DNA of 64,000 bases from an uncultured delta proteobacterium (GCA_963766715.1 CAVYBH010000014.1:32001-96000), one strand, 5' to 3'; positions 35,673 through 48,703 are shown, counted from the first letter of the stretch. A program made the numbers and translations. Notes: generated by a model from the sequence alone, not told the origin.

Positions 35673-36572
35673 TCAGCTGGCCAGCGCCGGGCCCGGGATG
35701 CCCGCCACCCCGGCCAGGTCGCTCTCGACGTCGTCGGCGATCCCGGCGAGCCCGAGCATGGCCTGTGCGAGGTGCGCCGCATGGAAGGGCGCGCCCGGGA
35801 GATCGACCGCGAGGAAGATCGCCCCGTCGGCGAGGACCACGCGGCAGAGCGTCATCCGCGCGTTCATCCGGTGCAGGAGCGCGAGCAGGTCCTCGTCCAC
35901 GGACCCGGGCTGGGCGATCCGCACGTAGACCCGCACCACCGTGGGCGCCTCGCGAACCTGGACGAAGCCGATGCGCGAGCCGATCCGGACCGCCAGGTCG
36001 CCGTCCGCGTCGTAGGCGAGGGTGAGGTCGCCCATGGCGTTCCGCGCCGCCGCCAGCACCCGGGCGCGCAGCCGCGCGATCGGCGCCCGCGGCTTGCGCG
36101 GCTTCGGGCGCGCGGGCTCGGGCTCCCGGGGGATGTGGAGCGCCGGAAGGACGAGCGCGTGCCCCTCGGGATCGAAGGCCTTGTAGGTCAGGTCGCTGGG
36201 GTCGGGGATGCGGTGGACGAGCGAGAGGGTCCGGACCGCGATGCGGGCGATCTCCTCGGCGGGGACGGGCCTCGGGAACTCCCGGAAGAAGTTGGGGGAG
36301 CCCTTCGGCACCGGGACGGGCGAGGGCGAGTCGGGCGCGTGGGTGGGGGCCTTCCAGCCGAGCGCCTCGAGCGCCGCCACCTGCTCCTCGGTGAGCTTCT
36401 CGGCCGGCGCCAGGTAGCCGTTGCTCACGGTCTCGGAGAAGACGCCTTCCTCGGGGGAGGCGTTGAACTGGACGAAGCGGTGTCCGGCCCGGGAGGAGAC
36501 GATGAGGATCTCGTCCTTCAGCACCGACAGGGCGCTGGCCAGGTCCCGCTCGAATGCGCTCCACTCGCTCAT
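35673..36572 (-). CDS. T3SS-chaperone/YbjN-like (TY-Chap-type) peptide-binding chaperone
   Basis: RFVQF..SETVSN.YL...L.ALGW.AP...NF..E...A....RTL..V.....P..L.Y.AF, then a YbjN-like D.DGDL..R.GS domain. SD GGAGGT. Confidence 0.65.
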   Translation of the reverse strand: MSEWSAFERDLASALSVLKDEILIVSSRAGHRFVQFNASPEEGVFSETVSNGYLAPAEKLTEEQVAALEALGWKAPTHAPDSPSPVPVPKGSPNFFREFPRPVPAEEIARIAVRTLSLVHRIPDPSDLTYKAFDPEGHALVLPALHIPREPEPARPKPRKPRAPIARLRARVLAAARNAMGDLTLAYDADGDLAVRIGSRIGFVQVREAPTVVRVYVRIAQPGSVDEDLLALLHRMNARMTLCRVVLADGAIFLAVDLPGAPFHAAHLAQAMLGLAGIADDVESDLAGVAGIPGPALAS

Positions 36573-36590: not shown

Positions 36591-36611
36591 AGCCTACCGG
36601 GAGGACGGACA
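36591..36611 (-). promoter_or_regulatory. Shared promoter motif, copy 1 (before the chaperone gene)
   Basis: TGTCCGTCCTCCCGGTAGGCT. Confidence 0.6.
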
Positions 36612-36623
36612 CGAGCCGGGCGT

Positions 36624-37591
36624 CTACCTGCGCGTACAACCGGGCGAGCTGCGCCACCCGGTCGCCGAGCTGCGCGCGCACGTCGGGCGGGCCGGCGATC
36701 TCCGCCTGGCCACCCCAGCCGAGAACCCAGCCGAGGAGGAAGTTGCCGGGCGCCAGCCGGGCCCGGACCGTGACCGCGCCATCGGCGTCCCGGGTGGCCC
36801 GATCCGGCCAGTGCTCGACCGCGAGGGCGGCCGCCTCGCCGGTGAAGCGGACCGCGACGTCCCGCTCCGCGCCCGACTGGAAGTAGAGCTGGCGGGTGCG
36901 GAAGCGATCGAGGGGCGGTCCCTTGTGGTCGCCGAAGATCCGGGTCCCCAGGACCACCGACGCGATCCGGTCGAGCCGGTAGAGGTGCTCCTCGCCCTTC
37001 GCCACGTTCCAGGCCGCCAGGTACCAGTGGCCGTCCTTGTGGAAGACGGTCCGCGGCTCCAGCGTGCGGGAGGAGAGCGTCCCGGAGGCCTCGGCGCGGT
37101 AGTCGACCGTCACCTCGACACGGCGCTCGATGGCCTCGGCGAGCGAGTCGGCCCACTCGCCGGGCGGGTCGACCTGGAAGTCGACGGCGCGCGAGAGGCC
37201 CCGGGCGGTGTCCCGGAAGGGCTCCGGGACGGCGCGGACCAGCTTCCTCAGGGCGGACGCCACCGTCCTGCCCGGCGCTCCGCTCGAAGGGGCGAAGCGC
37301 GGCGAGCAGCGCCGCCCCCTCGCGGAGGGACAGCGGGGGTGGTGACTCCAGGTGAAGGACGCGATCGACGACGACGCGACCCCCGTCGAGGGAGACCATC
37401 AGGCCGCCCTCCGGCATGGAGGGCCCGAAATCGAGCAGGCCCAGCGTGGTGACGATCTCCTCGATCTCCTTGGCGCTGCGCGCGCCCGTCACCTGGACGG
37501 CCCGCTCCATGGCGAGCCCCTTCGGCCCGGCGCGCCAGGCCTCCGGGATGAGGAGCAGCATCCTGCGGACCTGCGTGACCGGGTTCGTCAT
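36624..37591 (-). CDS. HTH-WYL-WCX transcriptional regulator, PafC-like (frameshift near 37270; stop approximate)
   Basis: QVRRMLLLIP, PPPLSLREGAALLAAL, SALRKL, RTLEP..GHWYLAAW..YRLDRI, GWVLGWGGQAEIAGP. Confidence 0.85.
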
Positions 37592-38614
37592 CCCGCCGTC
37601 TCCCGGGCCAGGCGGCCGGACAGGGCGGCCAGGATCTCCCGCGCCATCTCGCGCCCCTCGGCGGGCTCGAGCAGCTCGGCCTCGGGTCCCCAGGCGAGCG
37701 CCTGCCGCACCAGGCCGCCCAGGTTGCGGACCTCGAGGCGGGCCACCCGGGCGTTGTCCGGCTCGCGCGAGAAGCGGGCCGTGGGCAGGAGCTTCGGCGC
37801 GAGCGCGGCGAGGGACCCCCGGAAGCGAACCAGCGCCATGCGAGGCTCGTGGACGAAGTAGTCCCAGGTCTCCTGGCGCGACCAGCTCCGGATGTCGAAG
37901 TCGGCCGGGATGGCGTAGTCGGCCTTCTTGGCCTGCGCCGGGGCGACGGCGAGCGACTGCACGCGCTCCAGGTAGAACACGCGGACCGCGTCGCGCATGT
38001 GGCAGTGGCCGGCGAAGATCCAGTGCCCGCGGCGCCAGGCGTATCCGTAGACGTCGACGAGACGCTGGGTGACGGTGCCGTCGCTCTTGCGATAGGCCAC
38101 CTTCACCCGCTTCCGCCGCTCGATCGCGTCGGCCAGCGTGCCGAGCCACTTGCGGAGCGCGGCGGGCTCGGGGACGGACCACTGCTCCCTCGAGGAGCGC
38201 GGCCTTCGGCGGGAGCCCCTTCGCCCCCACCACGAGCTTGCGCAGCGCCGTCTCCAGGTCGTCGGAAAGGGGATGGTCGTGGGTGCGGAGCGCGGCCAGG
38301 CCGGCCATCCAGACCACCGAGGCCTCGTCGGGGGCGAAGTCGAGCCGGGGAAGGGTGCAGGAGGTGGCCTCCACGAGGTAGGCGCCCTCGCGCCCCTCCT
38401 CCTCGAGGAACTGCACCGGGATGCCCAGCTTCCGGAGGTCCTGCTTGTCGCGGGTCCACTTCTTCTCCCGCGCCTCGTCCTTGCCCGCGTAATCGTCCGG
38501 GAAGGCCTCGTAGACCTGCTGCCGCGTCACCGGCTCGCCGTGGTTCGAGAGCCAGGTCGCGAGCTGGAGGAGTCGCGCCTCGGCCGCCGTTCCACGCTTT
38601 CCGGTCGATGGCAT
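37588..38614 (-). CDS. HTH-WYL-WCX transcriptional regulator, PafB-like (frameshift near 38180-38200)
   Basis: RLLQLATWL..PVT..Y....EAREKKWTRDKQDLRKLGIP, ALRKL, RLVDVYG..GHWIFAGHCHMRDAVRVFYLERV, ALAWGPEAELLEP. Confidence 0.87.
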
Positions 38615-38631
38615 GAGCGAGGCAGTGTAGC

Positions 38632-39158
38632 TCACGGTGCGTGAGACGGCGAGTTCAGCTCGGCCCCTTCACCGAGTGACAGGACCAGTCCCGGCGAGGG
38701 TCGGGGAGCCCGGTGGTGCGCAGGTGGCAGAGCACCGTGCCCCGGGCCGGCTGCTCGCGGAGCGCCGAGGGGAAGAGCGCGGTCGCGATTCGCGCGAGCG
38801 GCGGGCGCAGCCGGACGGTGACGCGGACGGGTGGCTCGGGGCTGCCCGAGTCGAGGAACCCCGCGGTGGAGAAGAACCGGAGGTCGAAGCCGGGCGGGGC
38901 GAGCCCCCGCCGGGCCCGCGCCCGCATCACCCTCACCCGGAGGACGCGGTCGAGGCGGAAGAGCCGGAAGGCCTTCCTGCGGTGGCAGAAGGCCGCCAGG
39001 TGCCAGACGCCCTCCCGCCAGGCGAGCCCCAGGACGTCCACCTCCCGGTCGGTCCGGATGCCGCCACCGTCCTCGTACCGGAACCACGCCCGGCGTCCCT
39101 CGGCGAGGGCGCGGGCGAGGGGAAGGAGGGCCTTCCGGGCGGGGCGGGGCTGGGTCAC
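38632..39158 (-). CDS. Stand-alone WYL(-WCX) domain protein without an N-terminal HTH
   Basis: LARALAEGRR..FRY..TDREVDVLGL..GVWHLAAFCHRRKAFRLFRLDRV. Both ends are approximate. Confidence 0.78.
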
Positions 39159-39189
39159 GGCATGGAGAGCCCCCGGGGGCTCGGAGGCC

Positions 39190-39210
39190 ATCTTGGCCGG
39201 CCCACGGACA
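39190..39210 (-). promoter_or_regulatory. Shared promoter motif, copy 2 (before the stand-alone WYL gene)
   Basis: TGTCCGTGGGCCGGCCAAGAT. Confidence 0.5.
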
Positions 39211-39235
39211 CCGGCCGCCCGCCAGGCGCCGAGGC

Positions 39236-40849
39236 TCAGCCGGGCAGGCCGGGCCAGGAGCCGGTGGCCCCGGCCGGACCCACCACGCGCGCAGCCGTGA
39301 GCGCGCGGGTGAGGGCGATGTGCATGCGGGTTCCGAAGCGCTCCCGGTCCGCCGCTCCCACGTCCGCGACCAGGATGACCGGGCGCTCCAGCCCCTTCCA
39401 GCGCAGGAAGGTGTCGGCGACCAGCCGGTCCTCCATGCCGTCGGACCCGGCGCCCACGAAGGCGTGCCGGCCCAGCGCCGGGGCGTGGTGGACGGCGTCC
39501 TTCGCGTTCTGGCCGCGCAGCGACACGACGCCCACGTCGCCGGGCTTCACGCCTTGTGAATAGAGCCGGTCGATCTCCGCCCCCACGCAGGCGGCCACCC
39601 GGGCCGGGTCGTCGCAGGGGACGAGCCCGAGCGTCCCGTCGAGGACCGCCTTGCGGACGAGCGCCTCGTCGGAGGGCTCGCCCAGGTAGCGGCGCGCCAG
39701 CGCCTCGATGCCCGGAGGCGAGCGCCGGCCCCGGCCGAGCGGGAAGGGAGCGGGGAAGAGGCCGGCCGGGGGCTCGCGGTCCGGCCAGAAGGCCTGCCCG
39801 GTGTCGCGGAAGGCCCAGAGCCGCTTCCCTTCGGCCAGGCGCCCCACCAGGTACCAGGCCTCGAAGTCGAAGTCCTGCGCCTCGTCGACGACAATCGAGT
39901 CCCAGCGCGGCGTGCAGACGTCGGCGGCGCGCTCGCAGAACTTCCGCCAGGTCGAGGTGTCGGAGAAGTCGGCGCCGCCGTCCGGGCCGTCCACCTTCTC
40001 GGCCTCCGACTTGGCCAGTCCACCCACGGTGTGGACCTCAATCCCGCTGCCGTCGAGCCGCGCGCGCAGCCAGCGCCCGAGGGGCTGGGTGAAGCAGAGG
40101 AGCAGCGGCTTCCGCCCCGCCGCGAGCTCCCGGCGGGCGGCCTCCACCGCGAGCAGCGTCTTGCCCGTGCCGGCCCCGCCCTGCACCAGCGCCCGCTCCT
40201 GCCCGGAGAGCAGGTCGAGGGTGGCGAGCTGGATCTCGTCGAGGTCGAGGTGCGCGCGGCGCGCCTCCTCCACCCGGTGGCCGAGGGACAGGGAGGGCGC
40301 CCAGGTCTCGCCCCACATCTGGTGGAGCCGCTTCGTCCACTCCCCGCGCCCGCCGTCGGCCGGGGGCAGCGCGCGCTCGATCACGGCCGGGAGGTACTGG
40401 TCCAGCCAGGAGAGGTGGTTCTTGCCCAGCACGACGCCGCGGAGGTCGTCCTGCCACGGCTGCTCGTCGAACTCGACGTCGGGAAAGGCCACCGCCGCGC
40501 CCCAGGCCGGAGGCCAGCAGTTCCACTCGCCGAGCCGATCGCGAAGGCGCCGCACGAAGCCGTTTCCCTGGTCGAGCGGGGCCTTCTCGAGCTGCTTCCC
40601 GTTCGAGTACCAGAGGCCGCCGCGCTGCTCGATCTGCCCGCCCTTCACCTCGAGCACGAGCAGGCCGCGCTCCGGGTGGGCCAGGACGAAGTCGCCCTCT
40701 CCCAGGAAGTTCTTGCCGTCGCGGATGCGCAGGGAGTGCCAGGCGGTCCAGCCGGCGGGGAGCCCGGCCTTGAGCCGGGACCAGACGGTCCGCTCCCCGT
40801 GGGACGACGCGGGCCGGGGAGCGTCGGACGGCCAGAGCTTTCCGGGCAT
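39236..40849 (-). CDS. NERD nuclease-like domain fused to an SF1-type helicase/ATPase
   Basis: GEGDFVLAHPERGLLVLEVKGG; Walker A GGAGTGKT; Walker B IVVDEAQD; KGLE; IALTRA. Confidence 0.88.
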   Translation of the reverse strand: MPGKLWPSDAPRPASSHGERTVWSRLKAGLPAGWTAWHSLRIRDGKNFLGEGDFVLAHPERGLLVLEVKGGQIEQRGGLWYSNGKQLEKAPLDQGNGFVRRLRDRLGEWNCWPPAWGAAVAFPDVEFDEQPWQDDLRGVVLGKNHLSWLDQYLPAVIERALPPADGGRGEWTKRLHQMWGETWAPSLSLGHRVEEARRAHLDLDEIQLATLDLLSGQERALVQGGAGTGKTLLAVEAARRELAAGRKPLLLCFTQPLGRWLRARLDGSGIEVHTVGGLAKSEAEKVDGPDGGADFSDTSTWRKFCERAADVCTPRWDSIVVDEAQDFDFEAWYLVGRLAEGKRLWAFRDTGQAFWPDREPPAGLFPAPFPLGRGRRSPPGIEALARRYLGEPSDEALVRKAVLDGTLGLVPCDDPARVAACVGAEIDRLYSQGVKPGDVGVVSLRGQNAKDAVHHAPALGRHAFVGAGSDGMEDRLVADTFLRWKGLERPVILVADVGAADRERFGTRMHIALTRALTAARVVGPAGATGSWPGLPG

Positions 40850-40879
40850 CCGCGCAGCCTGACACGCGGGAGCCGTCCG

Positions 40880-41434
40880 TCAACCGCGCGACCGCCCCAC
40901 GTGGGCCGCGAACCGCTCGACGAAGCGCTCCTGGTCCGGGACCTCGATGGCGCCCGGCCGGGCCCGGCGAACCGCCTCGATGGCCGTCGACGGCGCCTTT
41001 CCCGTCGCGACCAGGCAGCAGGCGGCGATGGTCCCGCTGCGCCCCAGCCCTCCCAGGCAGTGGACGACCACGGTCTCCGCGCGCGCCAGGCTCCGCAGGA
41101 TCCGGGTGACGAGGCGGGACGTCGCCTCCAGCGAGGAGGGGACGGAGACGTCGGGGATGGGGAACCAGAAGCTCGCGATGCCGGCCCGACGGAGCACGCC
41201 CCGGAGGCCGTCGATGGCGAAGCGCTCCATCTCGAGCTCCTCCATGAGGGTGACGACCACGTCCGCTCCGTGGGCGTCGCGCAGGAGGGCCACGTCCATG
41301 CGGAGGAGGTTCTCCGACGGGTCGCGGCCGGGGCGCCACCGACCCGGCGCCTGCGTGAGCCCCAGCCGTCCCGGCAGCCCGTGGTCGCTCGAGGCGAGGA
41401 AGTCGACCCGCGCCTCGCGGGGGTCGGCCGCCAT
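40880..41434 (-). CDS. Protein-tyrosine/dual-specificity phosphatase (CDKN3-like)
   Basis: LGLTQAPGR, FPIPDVSVP, HCLGGLGRSG (CX5R), RPGAIE..DQ. Confidence 0.88.
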   Translation of the reverse strand: MAADPREARVDFLASSDHGLPGRLGLTQAPGRWRPGRDPSENLLRMDVALLRDAHGADVVVTLMEELEMERFAIDGLRGVLRRAGIASFWFPIPDVSVPSSLEATSRLVTRILRSLARAETVVVHCLGGLGRSGTIAACCLVATGKAPSTAIEAVRRARPGAIEVPDQERFVERFAAHVGRSRG

Positions 41435-42114
41435 CAGCAGACCTCCAGGACGACGACCCCCAGCTGCTCGAGGAGGTCGGTGCCGACGATGGCCTCCACG
41501 CCGAGCAGGCGCATCGCCATCGAGACCGACGAGGGGGGCTCGGCGAAGTCGACCGTCACCTCCCGGCCCCGGAAGACGGCCCGGCCGCGGCGAAGCGGCA
41601 CCTCGAAGTCCCCCTCGCCGTGGAAGAAGTCGCGCGCCCGGCCGGCCACGGGGAACCCGCTGGCCTGCGCGGCGGACAGGTACGACACCGGAGCGCCCGT
41701 GTCGACGACCGCGGTCACCGGGGCGCCCCAGATGAGGAGGTCCTCGATGATGAACCGCTGCCGGACGGCGCCGGGCACGTGGGTGGCGAAGCCCGGCGCG
41801 AGGTCGATGCGGAGGAGACGCGAGGTGAAGTCGAGGACCAGCCGGTGGCCCCAGAGCAGGTCGGTGCCGAGCAGCAGGTCGAAGTCGAAGTCCGGCGCCA
41901 CGCCGGGAAGCTGCCGGATGTGCTCCACCGCGGTGTCGACGGTGAACCCGAGGATGCCCGGGGAGACCCGGTGCTCGTCGCCGAGGAGCCGCATCCCGTC
42001 GCACCGCCCGAAGGTGACCGACGAGCCCGTGTCGAGCAGCGCCCTCCGGTCCCGGATGCGGGTGACGACGTGTCCGGCGACCAGGTCGAAGGGAGCGAGG
42101 AGAGGGCCAGGCAT
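41434..42114 (-). CDS. Two-domain retropepsin-like aspartyl protease
   Basis: ALLDTGS..LLGTDLL and AVVDTGA..IVGTDLL. No signal peptide. Confidence 0.7.
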   Translation of the reverse strand: MPGPLLAPFDLVAGHVVTRIRDRRALLDTGSSVTFGRCDGMRLLGDEHRVSPGILGFTVDTAVEHIRQLPGVAPDFDFDLLLGTDLLWGHRLVLDFTSRLLRIDLAPGFATHVPGAVRQRFIIEDLLIWGAPVTAVVDTGAPVSYLSAAQASGFPVAGRARDFFHGEGDFEVPLRRGRAVFRGREVTVDFAEPPSSVSMAMRLLGVEAIVGTDLLEQLGVVVLEVC

Positions 42115-42123
42115 TACACGGCG

Positions 42124-42144
42124 AGTGTCGAGCGTGGACGGACA
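42124..42144 (-). promoter_or_regulatory. Shared promoter motif, copy 3 (before the protease gene)
   Basis: TGTCCGTCCACGCTCGACACT. Confidence 0.55.
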
Positions 42145-42216
42145 TGGGCAGGAACCCGTCCGTGCCCTCACAGGGTGTAGACGAGCCACTGCAGCCAATC
42201 TGACGCCCCGTGAGGG

Positions 42217-45200
42217 TCAGACCCAGCGCATTCCCCCGTCGGCCGTGAAGAGCAGCCCGCATCTCACCGCGCCTGCCCTTGCGACGCCCAGCTCGACCAG
42301 GATTCGCCCGTAGCTCCGCACCTGCTCGACGTAGGCGGGGTGCGTTTCGCGGACGTCGCCGGTGGGCGGGCTGTCGGTCTTGAAGTCCACCACGCTCACC
42401 TGTCCATCCCGGGCGCCCAAGAGGTCGACGTAACCCTGGAGCAGCAGTCCGTCCCGACCCAGCGCGACGGGGTACTCCAGCCGGAGGTCTTCCCCTGGGA
42501 CGCGCCGCATCCCTGCTGCCTCGAGCGCGGAGAGGGCCCGGGTCACGTCGTCGGCCGCCTCGGCGTGGCGCTCGGCCAGCCCGGTCTCCCGCACCACCCG
42601 CGCGACCGCCCGGGCGGCGTCCAGTCCCGGCTCCCGGAGGCAGAGGCCGATCGCCCGGTGGACGGTGTCGCCGAAGACGCGGCCGAAGCGGCTCTCCCGC
42701 AGCCGGGGGCGCTCTCCGGCCCGCCCCTCGCCCTCGGACTCGGCGTCGACCCGCTCGTGGGCCTCGGTGGAGACACCCTTCGGCACGAAGCGCGGCGTCC
42801 CCGATCCGGCCGACGCCGAATCCCATTCCTTCCCGACTCGCCTCGACGGCTCGGCGACCTCCCGGGGGAGCCGTGCCGGTGGAGCCTCCACGTCCGTGGC
42901 CCAGGCGGGAGCGGCGTCGTCGGTCCACTCCTCGAGGACGTCGAGGGCAGGGGAGGAAGTTCCGACGAGGGCCGGGGTCACGAGCCCGGACTTGCCCGTG
43001 GTGACCACCGGCAGGACGAGGAGCTCGCGGGCCCGCGTCGCCGCGACGTAGACGAGGCGCCTGCGCTCGGCGGCCGCGTAGGCCTCCTCGCGCCCGAGGA
43101 AGCCGCTCTCCTCGGGCTCCTGCCAGGAGAGGCCGTCGATGTCGAGTGCCCACGCACTCCCGGTGCGCTCCACGAACCAGTGGGTCTGTCCCTTGCGCGG
43201 GGCGAAGCGGGCGTGCGCGTCCCACCAGGCCACGACCGGGAACTCGAGCCCCTTGGCCTGGTGGATCGACATGATCTGCACGGCCTCGGCGCCCACCGGG
43301 CGTGGGGGATCGAGGCCGACCGGATCCAGGGCCCAGGCCCGCAGGTGTGAGGTGACGCCGTCGAAGTCGAGCCCCTCCGCTGCGGCGATCCGTTCCAGCT
43401 CGAAGCACAGCTCACGCAGGCGCTCCAGCCGCTGCGAGCCGTTCGGTCCGAAGGCGACGGCGCGCCCGATTCCGGTGCGCTCGAGGAGGTCGCGCGCGGT
43501 CTCCCCGGGAGTCCGCTCGAACCGGCGCCGGCGCAGCTCCCCGACCAGCGCCTGGGCGGCGCGGGCCCGCTCGATGCCGGGGTCTCCCGGTCCGTCCCCG
43601 GCCGCCCCGGCCCGGACCAGGTCGGCCAGGTCCACGGCGAAGAAAGGCTCGCGGAGGAGCGCGGCCGTGGCGACGCCGTCCCGCGCGTCGGCGAGGGCCC
43701 GCAGGGCGAGCAGGAACTGCCGGTGAATAGGGTCCTGGAGGAAGAGGCTCGCTCCGCGGGCCGTCCACGGAACCCCGAGCCGGTCGAGCTCGTCGGTGAG
43801 CAGGCCCAGGTTGGTGGTGACGTGGGCGAGGATGGCGACGTCCCCGTAGCGGAATCCCCGCGCCTCGAGCGTCCGGAGCCACGTGGCGAGCACGGTGGCC
43901 TCCCTCGCCCGGTCGGGCCCCACCTTCTCGTCCTCGGTCGAGAAGGGCAGGACCACGACGCAGGCCGTCCGATCGCCTTCGCGCCCGGCGTCGAGGGGCC
44001 GATTCACGACCGTGCCCGCGTCCGGATCGAAGTCGCCCTTCCCTGGCTGGGCGCGCCCCAGGATGTCGTCGAACCGGGCGTTCAGGTGGGCGATGAGGGC
44101 GGGCTGTGAGCGGAAGTTGGCCGTGAGGGCGACCGCCAGGTGGCTGCCCTTCAGGACGATGGCGCGAACCGCGTCGTACACGGAGATGTCGGCCCGACGG
44201 AACCGGTAGATCGACTGCTTGGGGTCGCCGACCAGGGTCAGCTTCCCGGGGGCGAGCCGGACGTCGCCCCACTGCCCGGCCGCGGCGCCCTCTTCGCAGA
44301 GGTAGAGGACGATCTCGGCCTGCAGGGGATCGGTGTCCTGGAACTCGTCCACGAACACGTGGTCGAAGAGCGACTGCATCTCCAGCCGGACCTCCCGGCT
44401 GGACCGGAGCAGGTCCCGCAGGCACAGGAGGAGGTCGACCTGGTCCACCGCGCGGTGACGCGCCTTCACCTTCTCGTAGGTCGCCACCACGGCGGGGAAC
44501 GTGCGGACGAGCCGCGTGGCCATCCAGCGGTGGAGGGGACCGGTGATGCGTTCCTCGTAGGTGGGCTCGCTGCCCGGCTTGCCCCAGGCCTTCCAGGCCG
44601 CCCATCCGTCCGCGTCGTCCGGGAAGTCCCTGCGCATCTGGAGATCCGCGGGGCGCGGCGCCGACCGGACGAACCGGGCCACCTCCCGGTACAGGGTGAC
44701 GGGGTCGGACGCGGTGACGAGGGGCTCGAGTTGGCGCACGGCGCGCCTCATCCAGTCCGGACCCTTCCCCGTGCCGGTGGACGCGCGGGCCAGCGCGACG
44801 AATTCCTCGATGGCCTGGCCGACGCGCGCGGCCGGGAACGGCGCCGGCGGCCCGTCGGCCGGGGGCACGTCGCGGTGCAGGATGAAGCCATCGAAGAGCG
44901 CGTCCAGGCCGTGACGATCCCTCCAGGCGGTCTCCTTCGTCTCGGCGCGGACCTCGGCGGCGAGGGCGATCCGGATGTACTCCTGGGCCTCCTTCGCCCG
45001 CTCGGGTGGACAGGTGGTCCCGGCCAGCTCCTCGACGAGCCGACCGGCCTCGGAGGCCTGGAGCAGGATCTCGAAGGTCTCGTAGGTGAGCGCGGAGGCG
45101 TCCTCCACGATCTCGTAGGAGGGGCTCAGCCGGGCCTCGACCGGGCGCCGCCGGAGCAGCCGGTCCGCGAAGCCGTGGATCGTCCCGATGAAGGCGGTGT

Positions 45201-45516
45201 CCGCGGCGGAGAGCGCGAGCGCGAGCCGCTCCCGCCGGCGCGTCGAGGGCGCCCCGGCCAGCTCGGAGAGGAGCTTCTCGCGCACGCGGAGCTTCAGCTC
45301 GCCGGCGGCCTTGCGGGTGAAGGTCACCGCCGCGATGCGCTCGAGCGGGACGGCGTCCTGCGAGTCGTCGGACGGCGCCACCATCTCGACGAGCCGCGCG
45401 ACGAGGAGCGTGGTCTTCCCGGTTCCCGCACCGGCGTCCACCAGGACGTTCACGCCGCGTGACTGGATGGCGGCGTCGCGCTGCGCCTGGTCCGGAGCCG
45501 GCCGTCGAGCGCTCAT
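42217..45516 (-). CDS. AddA/AdnB-like UvrD helicase with a C-terminal RecB-type nuclease
   Basis: AGAGTGKT, TFTRKAA.EL, TIHGF, VDEFQDT, VGDPKQSIYRFR, NFRS, SIHQAKGLEF, YVAATRA, then GYVD..VDFKT..Q.RSY. Confidence 0.92.
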   Translation of the reverse strand: MSARRPAPDQAQRDAAIQSRGVNVLVDAGAGTGKTTLLVARLVEMVAPSDDSQDAVPLERIAAVTFTRKAAGELKLRVREKLLSELAGAPSTRRRERLALALSAADTAFIGTIHGFADRLLRRRPVEARLSPSYEIVEDASALTYETFEILLQASEAGRLVEELAGTTCPPERAKEAQEYIRIALAAEVRAETKETAWRDRHGLDALFDGFILHRDVPPADGPPAPFPAARVGQAIEEFVALARASTGTGKGPDWMRRAVRQLEPLVTASDPVTLYREVARFVRSAPRPADLQMRRDFPDDADGWAAWKAWGKPGSEPTYEERITGPLHRWMATRLVRTFPAVVATYEKVKARHRAVDQVDLLLCLRDLLRSSREVRLEMQSLFDHVFVDEFQDTDPLQAEIVLYLCEEGAAAGQWGDVRLAPGKLTLVGDPKQSIYRFRRADISVYDAVRAIVLKGSHLAVALTANFRSQPALIAHLNARFDDILGRAQPGKGDFDPDAGTVVNRPLDAGREGDRTACVVVLPFSTEDEKVGPDRAREATVLATWLRTLEARGFRYGDVAILAHVTTNLGLLTDELDRLGVPWTARGASLFLQDPIHRQFLLALRALADARDGVATAALLREPFFAVDLADLVRAGAAGDGPGDPGIERARAAQALVGELRRRRFERTPGETARDLLERTGIGRAVAFGPNGSQRLERLRELCFELERIAAAEGLDFDGVTSHLRAWALDPVGLDPPRPVGAEAVQIMSIHQAKGLEFPVVAWWDAHARFAPRKGQTHWFVERTGSAWALDIDGLSWQEPEESGFLGREEAYAAAERRRLVYVAATRARELLVLPVVTTGKSGLVTPALVGTSSPALDVLEEWTDDAAPAWATDVEAPPARLPREVAEPSRRVGKEWDSASAGSGTPRFVPKGVSTEAHERVDAESEGEGRAGERPRLRESRFGRVFGDTVHRAIGLCLREPGLDAARAVARVVRETGLAERHAEAADDVTRALSALEAAGMRRVPGEDLRLEYPVALGRDGLLLQGYVDLLGARDGQVSVVDFKTDSPPTGDVRETHPAYVEQVRSYGRILVELGVARAGAVRCGLLFTADGGMRWV

Positions 45517-48500
45517 TCCTCCTCCTCCTTCGCCTGCTTCGTCGCGAAGAAGGCCGCCACGGCTCCCTCCGCCTGGTCCGCGCCGGCGGACGCCCCTCTC
45601 GCGGACCGGCGCGCCGCAGACCGGAGCGAAGCAGCAGTAGTCGCAGTCCTCCGCCCGCGAGGTGGGCGGGAAGGCGTGCTCGGAGAGGAGCCCGGCCGCG
45701 ACGGAGAGCCAGCCCTTCGCCGCCGCGTCGAGCTGGGCGTGGTCGCCGCGGAACGCCCGCTCCGAAGGGCCGCTGGCGTAGACGTAGGCGGCCTGGACCT
45801 TCCTCGGGAGGCCCCATTCCGCGGCCATCTTCCTCGCCACCAGGCCGTACAGGCCGAGCTGGACGTCGCGCACCGGGGTCGGGCCCGCCTCCTCGCCCGT
45901 GCGCGGGTGCTCCCGGCCGGTCTTGAGGTCGCGGACCAGCGCGTGATCGCCCTCGACGTCGAGCCGGTCGATGTAGCCGCGGACGTGGAGGGGCGTCCCG
46001 CCCGCGTCGAGGACCACGCCGGAGAAGGCGCGCTCCACGCCCACGAAGCGGGAGAGCCGGAGGCCCGCGTCGTAGTCGAGGAAGGCCTCCAGGTCGCGCA
46101 CCAGCCTGGCCCGCTCCTTGTCGAGGACTCCCTTGCCCACGAGTGGATACCCGCCGCAGAGCCTGTCGAAGGAGTCGTCGGCGAACGTCCTCAGGACCCT
46201 CTTCCAGTGGGCCAGGTCCTTCTTCCCGGAGACGAAGGCCTCGCCGTGCGCGGCGTAGAAGTGCTCGGCCGCCTCGTGGAACATGCTGCCGTAGGAGAGC
46301 GCATCGATCTCGCGGATCGAGGGCGCACCGTCCGGTTCCTTCCAGCCCAGCACCCGCTCGCGGAGGAAGCGAAGCGGACAGGTGAGGAGCCGCTCCAGAG
46401 CCGACGCCGAGATCGGGTGCTCCGGGTCGAGCCCAGGGAAGCCGGGGAGCGGGCCGTCGTCCCCCAGGATCCCGTCGGCCGGCCCGAGATCGTCCCGGCT
46501 GCGCAGCGAGAGGATGGAGCCGATGTCGAGGCATGCCGCGCCGACCCAGGCAGGAGGCACCTCGCCCGTCGCGGCCGCCCGGTCGAGCCACTGGGCCTGC
46601 GAGACCGGGTTCGCGCTCCGGAACGCCAGCGCGGCCTCGCGAGCGGGCTCGAAGGACGTCCGCTGGAGCGAGGCCAGGTCGGGTATCGCCTCCAGCCGCT
46701 GCGCGTCGGGGCGCCCCAGCGCGGCGCCCACCTCGACCAGCAGGGACGAGATCTCCCGGTCGCTCCGCTCGGCGTCCGCGTGCGGGACCGAGAGCGCGAT
46801 TCGCGCGGTGGCTCCGCGCAGCGCCCGATCGAACGAGTGGAGCTGGGCCAGGACCCGGTCGCCCGAGACGGGGACCAGGATCCCCGCCTCTCCCCGCATG
46901 CGGTCGGGCAGTACCGGGTCCTCCCGGACCGCCGAGGGGAGCGCCCCCTCGCAGAGGCCGACGATGCGGACGGCCTGGAACTCGAGGCCCGCCGCGGATG
47001 CGACGGTGCCCACATAGACCGCCGGCTGGCCGAAGCGGACGGTGCCGAGGCGGAGCGACCCGAGTTGCTCCTCGATGAAGGACATCGCGCCGGCGCCGCG
47101 GACCGTCGAGGCGACCGCGTCGGTCGTGACGCGCTCCAGGGTCTCGCCGAGCAACGTCCGGACGGCCGCGCCCTTCCCGGGGAGGCGCACCCAGGTCTCC
47201 AGGAAGCCGGTGAGCGCCGGGGCGATCTCGGCGAGGGGGCGCGCCTCGACGACCTGCCTCGCCAGGCACACCAGCGCGTCGATCGCAGGGCGCGCCGCAC
47301 GGAGCGAGTCGAGGAGGGGTCGCAACTTCCACCCCTCCCGTGCCTCGGCCTCCTCGTCCAGCTCCTCGACCATCCTCGCCAGCTGGGCCTCGCGGGCCGC
47401 GACCCGCGGCGACCATTCGAGGGCGCCCTCGGGACGGGCGGAGCTCCCGCCCGCGGTGCCCACCCCCCACGCGATGGCGAGGGCGGTGCCGGGCGCGAGG
47501 CGGTCGCGGTCGCCGACCTTCACCTCCAGGCAGGGCAGGAGGTCGCTCATCGACCCGGCTGGAAGGAAGGCACCGAGTGCACGGACGACAGCCAGGACGC
47601 GCGCGCCCGCCGCGGTGGCCACGAGCGGGAGTCCCCCGGCGACGTGGACCGGGAACTCGCCGGCCGGCCAGGGCAAGCGCGAGATGCGGCTCGCGAGCAT
47701 GGGAGCGAGGGGGTGCTGGTGCGGGACGAGGACCGCCACGTCCTCGAGCGGCGTCCTGTGCGAGAGGACCTCCCGCGACACCCACTCGGCCGCGGCCTCC
47801 ACCTCGGTCTCGACCCCTGCGTACTCCTCGAGGGTCACGGTGCCGTCGGCTCCCCGGCTGCGCGGCCGGGAAGGGTCGGCGAGCGTCTGGGGGGCGCGAA
47901 GATGTACCGGCACAGGAGGTCGCGCTCCGTGGCGGTGGCGCCCGGCGGAGGTGCCTCCTCGAGGGCGGCCCGGGCCTCCGGGCCGAAGAGGGCCTCGAGG
48001 CGCTCGAGGTGGCGGGGGCGGATGGGGCGCGCGGCGAAGAGCGCGAAGCGTGGCCCCGGGCAGGGAACGCAGGAACCGGGCCTCGGCGGCCGTTTCACGT
48101 CCCGTCACGGTGACCAACGTCGGGCCCGTCGCCGGGCGAGCACCGCCCCGCAGGGCCTCGGCGGCCAGGAGGAAGATGCGCGCGCCGGTGGCGCTCCGGC
48201 CCGCGGCGGCGTCGAGGCGGCGCCAGAGCAGGCTCACGTCGCGCCATTGCGAAGACGTCCGGGGGAGCCCGTCGGGAGAGAGCCCCGCGCCTTCGAGGTC
48301 GCCGATGGCGGCGGCGAAGGCGTCCGGCCAGCCCTGCGTGTTTCGCAGGAGCTGCAGGTCGAAGTACTCCAGGGGAAGCTCATCCTGGAAGAGCCCGAGG
48401 AGGCGGGCCGCCCGGAGCGACTCCTCGCCCGGAAGGAGATCGCTGCCGGCCTCCGCCAGGATCTCCTGGGCCAGGGTCAGCGGGCCGACGAAGCGGGTGC

Positions 48501-48672
48501 CCGCCAGGGCGGCCGGGCGTCCGGAGCGGAGGAGGGCCCGGCGGAGGGAGTGGGCGTGGCGCTCGGAGGGGACGAGAGCCGTCCGGATGGGAAGGGCTCC
48601 CGACGCGGCGAGCGCGGCCACGGCCGAGGCCTGGTCGGAGAGCGAGTGGAAGATTGACCAGGAAGTGCCCAT
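45513..48672 (-). CDS. AddB/AdnA-like protein: inactive helicase scaffold plus PD-(D/E)XK nuclease with Fe-S Cys
   Basis: AAGLEFQAVRIVGL.EG.LP, SASALE..LTCPLRF, GSMFH, RGYIDRLD..RDLKTG..QLGLY, CDYC.FAPVC. An alternative-frame end TKQAKEEEE* overlaps the next ATG. Confidence 0.87.
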
Positions 48673-48682
48673 ACGGGCACGC

Positions 48683-48703
48683 ACTCTACCGGTCGGACGG
48701 ACT
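48683..48703 (-). promoter_or_regulatory. Shared promoter motif, copy 4 (before the addB-like gene)
   Basis: AGTCCGTCCGACCGGTAGAGT. Confidence 0.6.

Follow-up and report, generated by a model that had tools for sequence, protein, structure and literature searches.

The 64,000-nt stretch of DNA analysed here, from an uncultured delta proteobacterium (GCA_963766715.1, CAVYBH010000014.1:32001-96000; hereafter the window), contains a short element that recurs on the minus strand ahead of chaperone, WYL, protease and nuclease genes, close to a tandem pair of genes encoding WYL-domain regulators. The question raised by this locus is whether the pair reads the element. In mycobacteria, PafBC acts by 'sigma adaptation' at RecA-NDp promoters of the form tGTCgg(N10)tA(N3)T (PMC8635444, PMC11804915; here and below, papers are cited from the passages available), and a preliminary description of the window proposed a similar circuit with a spacer one base shorter. 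Analysis of the window, its genome and related genomes revealed a promoter class, TGTCCG-N9-TANNNT, that has a fixed phase to its -10 hexamer, is linked to one clade of PafBC homologs (clade A, the window's pair) and has its own targets, together with a second class, RTGTCRG-N10-TANNNT, that is independent of clade A. The sequence evidence suggests, with a probability of roughly 0.7, that the clade-A heterodimer activates the TGTCCG-N9 promoters by a variant of sigma adaptation. Judged in this way the class is real and conserved and the pair is a strong candidate for its regulator, in what appears to be an accessory, defence-type circuit and not the main one.

The TGTCCG-N9-TANNNT promoter class

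The window's genome (G000) belongs to the Anaeromyxobacteraceae, a lineage of soil and sediment bacteria, and is 4.2 Mb in size, 72% GC and 84.6% complete; G numbers denote genomes, L numbers loci and C numbers contigs of G000. The consensus of the class, cRTGTCCGtcc, is written here as TGTCCG-N9-TANNNT. This strict form had eight matches in G000, compared with 0-3 at other spacers (range 4 to 15), and seven of the eight lay outside the window. The relaxed pattern first proposed also gave eight matches genome-wide, but with 2-16 at other spacers there was no excess. An unbiased scan for words upstream of 3017 TANNNT hexamers in G000 returned GTGTCC/TGTCCG at this distance as the top non -35 word, after the TTGAC family. 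The same phase was evident in clade-A loci: 20 of them contained 23 strict sites at N9, four at N10 and 0-2 at other spacers, with no TGTCGG-N10 site, and in 50 loci, a partly overlapping set, the relaxed sites lying between genes numbered 42 at N9 and no more than six at any other spacer. Position weight matrix (PWM) scans below approximately 17 bits failed to separate N9 from other spacers, so that weak sites are not callable by score. The spacer is indeed one base under that of the mycobacterial form, as had been claimed. The element is non-palindromic and one-directional, standing a fixed 9 nt ahead of the housekeeping -10, and no second half-site was found in the flanks of 104 aligned N9 sites. 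The T given as the seventh motif base proved to be a preference (58% of the 104 sites), not a requirement.

The hexamer had been described as -10-like. In G000 a TANNNT peak was observed 6-9 nt ahead of ATG (48, 27, 38 and 37 occurrences vs approximately 5 per offset elsewhere), which is a mark of leaderless transcripts; promoters of this type were common, 150 of 1914 predicted genes having TANNNT at one of these distances from the ATG. An ATG was present 5-9 nt past the hexamer at 35 of the 104 N9 sites, which were taken from relatives, compared with 399 of 3020 background hexamers. By these sequence marks the hexamer of the N9 class is the housekeeping -10.

All four window sites were found, without gaps and on the minus strand, where they had been placed; there were four matches vs 0.22 ± 0.46 expected (100 shuffles, none reaching four), for a pattern that was itself a post hoc fit to these sites, the independent test being DNA outside the window. 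Site 1 (36591..36611), TGTCCG-N9-TAGGCT, stands 18 nt before the start of a TY-chaperone gene and had the third-best PWM score in the genome; the same class precedes the orthologous gene in L108. Site 2 (39190..39210), TGTCCG-N9-CAAGAT, is 31 nt from the GTG start of the stand-alone WYL gene and is kept, with CACGAT, in L149, L152 and L179. Site 3 (42124..42144), TGTCCG-N9-GACACT, is lineage-specific and lies 9 nt from a protease ATG; a relaxed site was seen ahead of a distant protease homolog in L051. Site 4 (48683..48703), AGTCCG-N9-TAGAGT, lies 10 nt from an addB-like ATG; its ortholog in L148 is TGTCCG-N9-TAGACT, and the addB-like genes of L073, L133, L042 and L049 are also preceded by the class. 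The gaps to the start codons fall within the 9-31 nt originally given. The other features attributed to the sites held in part: sites 1 and 4 have a full TANNNT whereas the -10 sequences of sites 2 and 3 are weak, the first T of TGTCCG is replaced by A at site 4, and conservation in orthologous regions extends to sites 1, 2 and 4 but not to site 3. The sites had also been called intergenic. The pafC frame of this assembly reads through site 1, which would lie between genes only if pafC stops at the TAG at 36626-36624, as it does in the closest ortholog, which is one base shorter there.

Two PafBC clades and the promoters they accompany

The adjacent genes, both on the minus strand, are pafB (37588..38614) and pafC (36624..37591), each predicted to encode a winged helix-turn-helix (wHTH)-WYL-WCX protein. 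The clade-A PafB profile matched solved mycobacterial PafB chains at E 6e-27 and PafC chains at 3e-6, while the best match of the PafC profile was PafC (7p5x_AX, E 4e-26), compared with 3e-12 for PafB. Pfam identified WYL/WCX in PafC and gave no helix-turn-helix (HTH) match for either protein, these domains being assigned by full-length alignment to the 7P5X/6SJ9 chains; neither Paf clade was represented by an NCBIfam model at E 1e-8. The clean sorting of the profiles bears out the earlier assignment and argues that the window neighbours are a true PafB/PafC pair. A model of the pair reached an ipSAE interface score of 0.75 (best of three controls, 0.00), with a partner predicted local distance difference test (pLDDT) value of at least 81 and agreement between runs in at least 90% of contacts; this mark was attained by 116 of 157 solved pairs and by 2 of 215 mismatched ones. 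The model favours a heterodimer, although its likeness to solved PafBC may account for the score.

PafB proteins of the family fell into two groups: clade A (at least 44% identity to the query) and clade B, the core pair (33-40%). Clade A was present in 56 of 91 relatives, counting G070, in which the gene is split, and outside the family a score at its level was obtained only in G271, one of 222 sampled genomes. A clade-B match was found in 109 of 112 genomes of sister family f2 (108 of 111 without the unpublished G239, which underlies no other result here), and from these matches clade B appears nearly universal in the order. A quick tree placed the clades on separate sides of a branch, with Shimodaira-Hasegawa-like approximate likelihood ratio (SH-aLRT) values of 90 (A) and 82 (B) that were not starred; the tree was built without actinobacterial sequences and is silent on origin and direction of transfer. 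G000 itself carries a core clade-B pafB-pafC pair at C8:17264-19236 (-) with a canonical TTGACG-17-TAAGGT promoter. In locus L105 of G070 a TGTCCG-N9 site stands 9 nt from the ATG of the clade-B pafB, and control of pair B by pair A is possible.

The first alternative to activation by clade A is that the N9 sites are the business of core clade-B PafBC or of mixed A/B heterodimers, clade A just travelling with the targets; pair B is, after all, present in G000 and nearly all relatives. The distribution of the sites across the family speaks against it. TGTCCG-N9-TANNNT averaged 5.09 per genome with clade A (n = 56; control 1.18) and 1.34 without it (n = 35; control 1.34), and at least five strict N9 sites were found in 31 of 56 clade-A genomes vs none of 35 A-less genomes. 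With G070 counted as A-less the means were 4.96 and 1.64, and in the largest genus alone they were 5.10 (with A, n = 20) and 1.12 (without, n = 17). The reversed-pattern control overstates the background where TA is depleted (11.7 vs 3.2 observed in genus g23) and is therefore conservative. The strict N9 class was thus enriched only with clade A among the 91 relatives, which supports the tie first drawn between the motif and the adjacent pair. In G277, 13 TGTCCG-N9 sites were counted vs 5 in the control, though its best PafB match is clade B.

The N10 class behaved differently. RTGTCRG-N10-TANNNT was enriched with or without clade A (2.80 and 3.00; controls 0.57 and 1.11), and the mixed combinations were near background in A and A-less genomes (RTGTCRG-N9, 1.38 and 0.97; RTGTCCG-N10, 1.39 and 1.09). 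In 47 B-only genomes from two genera of f2, RTGTCVG-N10 was above its control every time, and TGTCCG-N9 was below its own in all 47. Counts made by eye for N7 to N13 were 10, 13, 11, 35, 5, 9 and 4 in five A-less genomes, where the N9 value falls within the background of 4-13, vs 9, 8, 34, 34, 6, 0 and 4 in five A genomes, where 27 of the 34 N9 sites had TGTCCG. A single promoter followed the same division: that of sbcD, for which 20 of 23 matches were fetched and 19 close orthologs used, had N10 in all four A-less genomes, and N9 in 11, N10 in three and an unclear spacer in one of the 15 A genomes.

Several findings weigh against clade A as the reader of the N9 class, and some of them favour pair B. 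The A-less genomes mostly lack the clade-A target genes found on the islands, so that co-occurrence is confounded, and the genomes compared are kin and not independent, so that p-values for the co-occurrence are overstated. Strict sites are nearly or wholly absent (0-1) from some clade-A genomes, such as G012, G015, G020, G022 and G081. In G187, a B-only genome of another family, counts by eye for N7 to N13 were 3, 3, 15, 19, 7, 3 and 2; its N9 sites were mostly TGTCAG or TGTCGG, and clade B may read N9 when the site is of this type. Two of the four A-less genomes in the sbcD comparison are only 73% and 81% complete. Site 3 is missing in six of six same-genus protease orthologs. The lack of an obvious TTGACA, noted in the preliminary description, is weak evidence, only mildly above the local norm: a -35 element was seen at 4 of 104 N9 sites, compared with 19 of 163 promoters of the leaderless type outside the class (p = 0.027, Fisher's test). 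The promoter of the transfer-messenger RNA (tmRNA), duplicated in G000 and representing two of the eight strict matches, carries TTGACC. The remaining points concern residues by which clade A departs from mycobacterial PafBC: the second guanine reader of PafB, R46, is K in 36 and R in 10 of 46 clade-A sequences (K in the window copy) vs R in 20 of 20 clade-B sequences; the PafB wing-tip W70 is absent, the wing being acidic or Gly-rich; the PafC D/E62 position is variable, with Met in the window copy; and PafB Y196 and R211 are replaced by Ile and by Tyr or Leu, respectively. The roles of these residues in DNA, sigma and single-stranded DNA (ssDNA) contact are taken from PMC8635444 and PMC11804915, in which W70 docks into sigma3 and the beta flap and D/E62 contacts sigma domain 4 (S446). 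In view of the counts above, reading of the N9 class by pair B or by mixed heterodimers is considered unlikely. Strict insulation of the two classes by the spacer alone was ruled out by the N9 sites of B-only G187 and by the N10 sbcD promoters of 3 of 15 A genomes.

Other contact residues are shared with mycobacterial PafBC. R50 and K52 of PafB helix 3 (RDK) occurred in every PafB sequence compared, 46 of clade A and 20 of clade B, and clade A keeps six of the eight WYL residues for ssDNA (R181, R204, R208 and R214 of PafB; R201 and R204 of PafC). The Asp at PafC position 62 was present in the clade-B copies inspected, and clade B appears to keep the mycobacterial DNA- and sigma-contact residues. 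RpoD retains two arginines 26 residues apart and has Ala at the S446 position, as mapped by spacing and not by a SigA alignment; in a search of solved structures with RpoD domain 4, mycobacterial SigA was not among the matches at E 1e-20.

A second alternative is that the WYL pair is a ligand-released repressor, by the logic of CapW/BrxR, with an operator overlapping the promoter spacer. CapW and BrxR are homodimeric WYL repressors that act on palindromic operators; they are likewise wHTH-WYL-WCX proteins found beside defence genes, whereas here there are a non-palindromic phased site and two different subunits. Repression would suit the tmRNA promoter, which has both TTGACC and the motif, and PMC9503650 calls the WYL factors of systems with ADP-ribosylglycohydrolase (ARG), phosphatase, TY-chaperone and ARPP genes negative regulators that sense ADP-ribose, the same families being among the targets here. 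It is nevertheless quite improbable, given a single site that has no second half-site, is in base-exact phase to the -10 and often accompanies a weak -10 and no -35, and proteins whose match to heterodimeric PafB and PafC is far closer than that to homodimeric WYL regulators. Less probable still is that the element is read by another factor travelling with the islands, whether a third HTH-WYL regulator, an alternative sigma factor or an activator of some unrelated kind. Other HTH-WYL-WCX genes are targets in relatives (L067, L138) and a gene resembling those for extracytoplasmic function (ECF) sigma factors lies downstream of one G000 site (C8+156366); against this, two third-type HTH-WYL queries had no match in G000 at E 1e-6 in a genome 84.6% complete, not every co-occurring regulator having been searched for, the stand-alone WYL protein has no HTH, the hexamer is the genome-wide housekeeping -10, and by established promoter geometry a 9-nt spacing is too short for contact with sigma domain 4. 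That the motif arose by chance and was fitted to four GC-rich stretches between genes, as its post hoc derivation, the lack of genome-wide excess of its relaxed form and the poor conservation of site 3 might suggest, is refuted for the class, site 3 alone excepted, by the spacing, word-scan, co-occurrence, clade-A locus and sbcD results, all of which come from DNA outside the first reading.

Targets of the two classes and genes of the window

Among 104 distinct N9 sites, 72 had a coding-like open reading frame within 150 nt. Family scans covered 85 chosen proteins (targets and some neighbours), 34 of which were also compared with PADLOC. Recurrent targets were nuclease and repair genes (SbcD, AddB/AddA-like nucleases, UDG-family, RmuC), ADP-ribose genes (ARG, PARG macrodomain, ARPP-1) and genes for vWA/VIT proteins, TY-chaperones/YbjN, other HTH-WYL regulators and the HTH-less WYL protein; the defence targets named were type IV methyl-directed restriction, HmaA-like, PD-Lambda-1 and PDC-M32A, and many targets had no family assignment. 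In G000 the sites at L001:9048(-) and 9071(+) form a divergent pair for HD-domain genes and sbcD-sbcC, and those at L001:13299(+), L005:4270(+) and L006:4367(+) precede a tetratricopeptide repeat (TPR)-like gene followed by a metK-like gene, a vWA gene, and an ECF-sigma-like gene with a kinase, respectively, the TPR-like and ECF-like labels coming from sequence reading and homolog L136. The window holds phosphatase, TY-Chap and WYL genes but no ARG; ARG, PARG and ARPP-1 carry the motif in relatives, and the ARG on C15 of G000 had no site within 300 nt upstream. Together these targets suggest a nuclease, defence and ADP-ribose-reversal regulon. The idea that this was the lineage's main PafBC or general repair regulon had to be abandoned: no N9 site was found at recA (two copies), lexA or radA of G000, and the second, core pair has the N10 class at ssb and recN. 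In three genomes of the genus (L007:8723(-), L008:6996(+), L112, L119), TGTCCG-N9 lies inside the TTGACC/TATATT promoter of the tmRNA gene; the two G000 copies, at contig ends, are probably one locus.

Targets of the N10 class in relatives were ssb, recN, recA, radA, dprA, sbcD, rmuC, lon and ddiA. G000 contains both classes, its N10 sites being at C1:40764(-) for ssb, C2:56568(+) for recN (6 nt to the ATG), C1 near 164646(-) for a conserved hypothetical gene and C12:644638(-) for a UvrD-like helicase. Orthologs of ddiA in f2 (L295, L317-L321, L346) had RTGTCAG-N10-TANNNT ahead of the ATG, at 100 nt in three genomes and at 98-99 nt in another three; this ddiA-like XRE gene adjoins a pomXYZ-like cluster, and the site was present in six of six genomes (three genera) and none of five paralogs. 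Because the Myxococcus xanthus ddiA start codon is at +94 (PMC12288472), the +1 would be seven bases past the hexamer, assuming the same leader in the strain studied. The recA and recN loci of G187 match M. xanthus LexA-box oligonucleotides printed in PMC9705874, and the N10 sites therefore adjoin or overlap those boxes. On this sequence evidence clade B and the N10 class are likely to be a true PafBC member. N10 sites were also observed before a cyclase of the cyclic-oligonucleotide-based anti-phage signalling system (CBASS) type (L260, G004; PADLOC) and before four copies of one gene in G233 (L288, L290, L296, L308), which had no family match and which we take to be transposase-like.

The genes of the window that surround the pair all lie on the minus strand. 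Downstream of site 1 is a TY-Chap3 + TY-Chap1 gene (35673..36572; PF22552, PF22551), a type III secretion system (T3SS)/YbjN-type peptide chaperone and predicted target. Another predicted target, directly upstream of pafB, is the stand-alone WYL(-WCX-like) gene without an HTH (38632..39158, end coordinate inferred; Pfam WYL only). It is followed upstream by a NERD nuclease and superfamily 1 (SF1) helicase gene (39236..40849; PF08378, AAA_19, PADLOC NERD-helicase models), a DSP-PTPase gene of the Tc-R-P / PTP-SAK, rhodanese-phosphatase type (40880..41434; PF22785, PF22784) and a gene for a retropepsin-like aspartyl protease (41434..42114), the Pfam matches of which were weak (E 2e-4 to 9e-4) and below the cut-off. 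The nuclease genes are an AddA/AdnB-like UvrD helicase with a PD-(D/E)XK nuclease (42217..45516; PF00580, PF13361, PF12705; start read from sequence) and an AddB/AdnA-like PD-(D/E)XK nuclease subunit (45513..48672; PF12705), frameshifted in the assembly and represented in L052 by a 1042-aa ortholog. The protease orthologs (L016, L017, L019, L020, L022, L026) share an upstream TGTCAC-N15/16-CGTC, presumably an ECF-sigma-like promoter, with a degenerate copy at window positions 42205-42179 (-), upstream of site 3. No pafA was found among the genes flanking the pair, where the WYL and TY-Chap genes lie, the rest of the genome not having been searched for it.

The pafB gene has its own -10 hexamer, TACACT (38624..38629), 9 nt from the ATG and with no TGTCCG upstream; most clade-A loci likewise have a TANNNT close ahead of the pafB start, again without the motif. 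The preliminary description had concluded that pafB was constitutive. The absence of the motif and the conserved -10 agree with this, but expression is not necessarily purely constitutive, because the motif precedes the WYL gene upstream, which reads into pafBC. An inverted repeat before the pafB -10 was ruled out as an element, as it was not conserved. Of 42 loci, 17 had the HTH-less WYL gene upstream of pafB, and nine of these 17 carried the motif within 170 nt, mostly with a weak -10; the product of this gene retains the WYL arginines and is probably a modulator. In 5 of the 17 loci (L166, L167, L169, L181, L186) the gene is in frame with pafB, which retains its own -10, and a genuine WYL-PafB fusion is possible there.

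Single-base frameshifts were numerous in the assembly: at 37270 in pafC, which also has an extra base near 36630, at 38182-38184 in pafB, at 38689 and 38702 in the stand-alone WYL gene, and in the addB-like gene and the sbcD/sbcC genes of L001. Intact orthologs are of 341 aa for pafB and, in L148, of 321 aa for pafC. The extra pafB base was absent from contigs of four of four public runs, the pafC base at 37270 from three of four, the fourth being without coverage there, and those at 38689 and 38702 from two runs. Most of the frameshifts are therefore probably assembly errors, since those tested were absent from the contigs of related organisms.

Proposed mechanism and relation to known systems

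By analogy with mycobacterial PafBC, the clade-A pair would be an accessory paralog of core PafBC that reads N9 sites as activator-dependent housekeeping-sigma promoters. Single-stranded nucleic acid from DNA breaks or phage replication would bind the WYL domains, the PafB HTH would read the GTC triplet, the PafC HTH would hold sigma domain 4, and RNA polymerase would fire without a -35. Given the two changed residues, ssDNA is only moderately favoured as the ligand of clade A. More tentatively, the changed recognition helix (K46, T/S49), the lost wing Trp and the lost PafC Asp may shift the register by one base, a shift that may keep the two regulons largely apart. Also tentatively, the HTH-less WYL protein, whose weak motif promoter lies upstream of pafBC, may close a feedback loop, through more PafBC by read-through and by acting as a ligand sink or third subunit.

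To our knowledge, PafBC has so far been studied only in actinobacteria and sigma adaptation shown only in mycobacteria. Clade A resembles the mycobacterial system in its tandem PafB-like and PafC-like genes, the GTC triplet in fixed phase with a housekeeping -10, the nuclease targets and the kept contact residues. It differs in having a spacer of 9 with TGTCCG, in being flanked by WYL and TY-chaperone genes and not pafA, and in being accessory, with a defence-type regulon without recA and in coexistence with a canonical pair. As a PafBC homolog that lacks a number of the defining residues as well as the 10-nt spacer and a regulon of the recA type, it is best described, on sequence grounds, as a variant of PafBC.

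DriD of Caulobacter is reportedly a single-gene WYL activator outside Actinobacteria. DdaA of Moraxellaceae, another such activator, links DNA repair with anti-phage systems; unlike the present pair it is a single gene, its site is approximately 50 bp upstream of the start site, and it is reported that it may not use sigma adaptation (PMC12392091). The ARG-centred counter-ADP-ribosylation systems (Iyer et al. 2022, PMC9503650) share with the N9 regulon ARG, rhodanese-phosphatase, TY-Chap, ARPP, Macro and restriction endonuclease (REase)/helicase genes with a WYL regulator. Those systems form one operon with a Nudix or WYL regulator, the WYL one being a proposed one-component repressor that senses ADP-ribose; here, in contrast, there are a PafBC pair, an activator-type promoter and dispersed loci that include SbcCD and AddAB-like genes.

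The M. xanthus pafBC genes, MXAN_1359/1360, were already named, with a PafBC-binding sequence in 24 of 51 indirectly LexA-controlled genes (PMC9705874); the available passages of that paper give no motif, spacing or test, and its supplement text contains no PafBC, although tables presented as pictures could be missed. PMC12288472 set the MXAN_1359/1360 pair aside and left ddiA induction open. The most likely ortholog group of this pair is clade B, the core pair, which has a LexA-like box upstream in some genomes, and the available passages of both papers make no mention of clade A or the N9 class. In the literature covered, which did not extend to subscription journals, bioRxiv supplements or picture tables, none of the papers found dealt with the N9 motif or with two clades of PafBC.

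A wider proposal, for which we consider the odds about even, is that Myxococcota run two sigma-adaptation circuits. The myxobacterial damage response would have in core PafBC, with its actinobacterial promoter geometry intact, the master activator independent of LexA that has been missing, acting on recA2, recN, ssb, radA and ddiA and, through ddiA, on DnaE2 mutagenesis. The second PafBC, duplicated and mobile, its helix and wing re-tuned to a one-base-shorter promoter and perhaps to another ligand, would serve a dispersed anti-phage and ADP-ribose-reversal regulon, capture core genes such as sbcD by a one-base spacer change and be tuned by the HTH-less WYL protein. If the activation of N9 promoters by clade A is correct, the PafBC promoter code exists in a Gram-negative phylum in two versions, and the mechanism would be old or mobile. 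Its geometry would be re-settable by one base, providing a natural pair for structure work, and the WYL regulators of the predicted anti-phage ADP-ribose-reversal systems would change from proposed repressors to testable activators.

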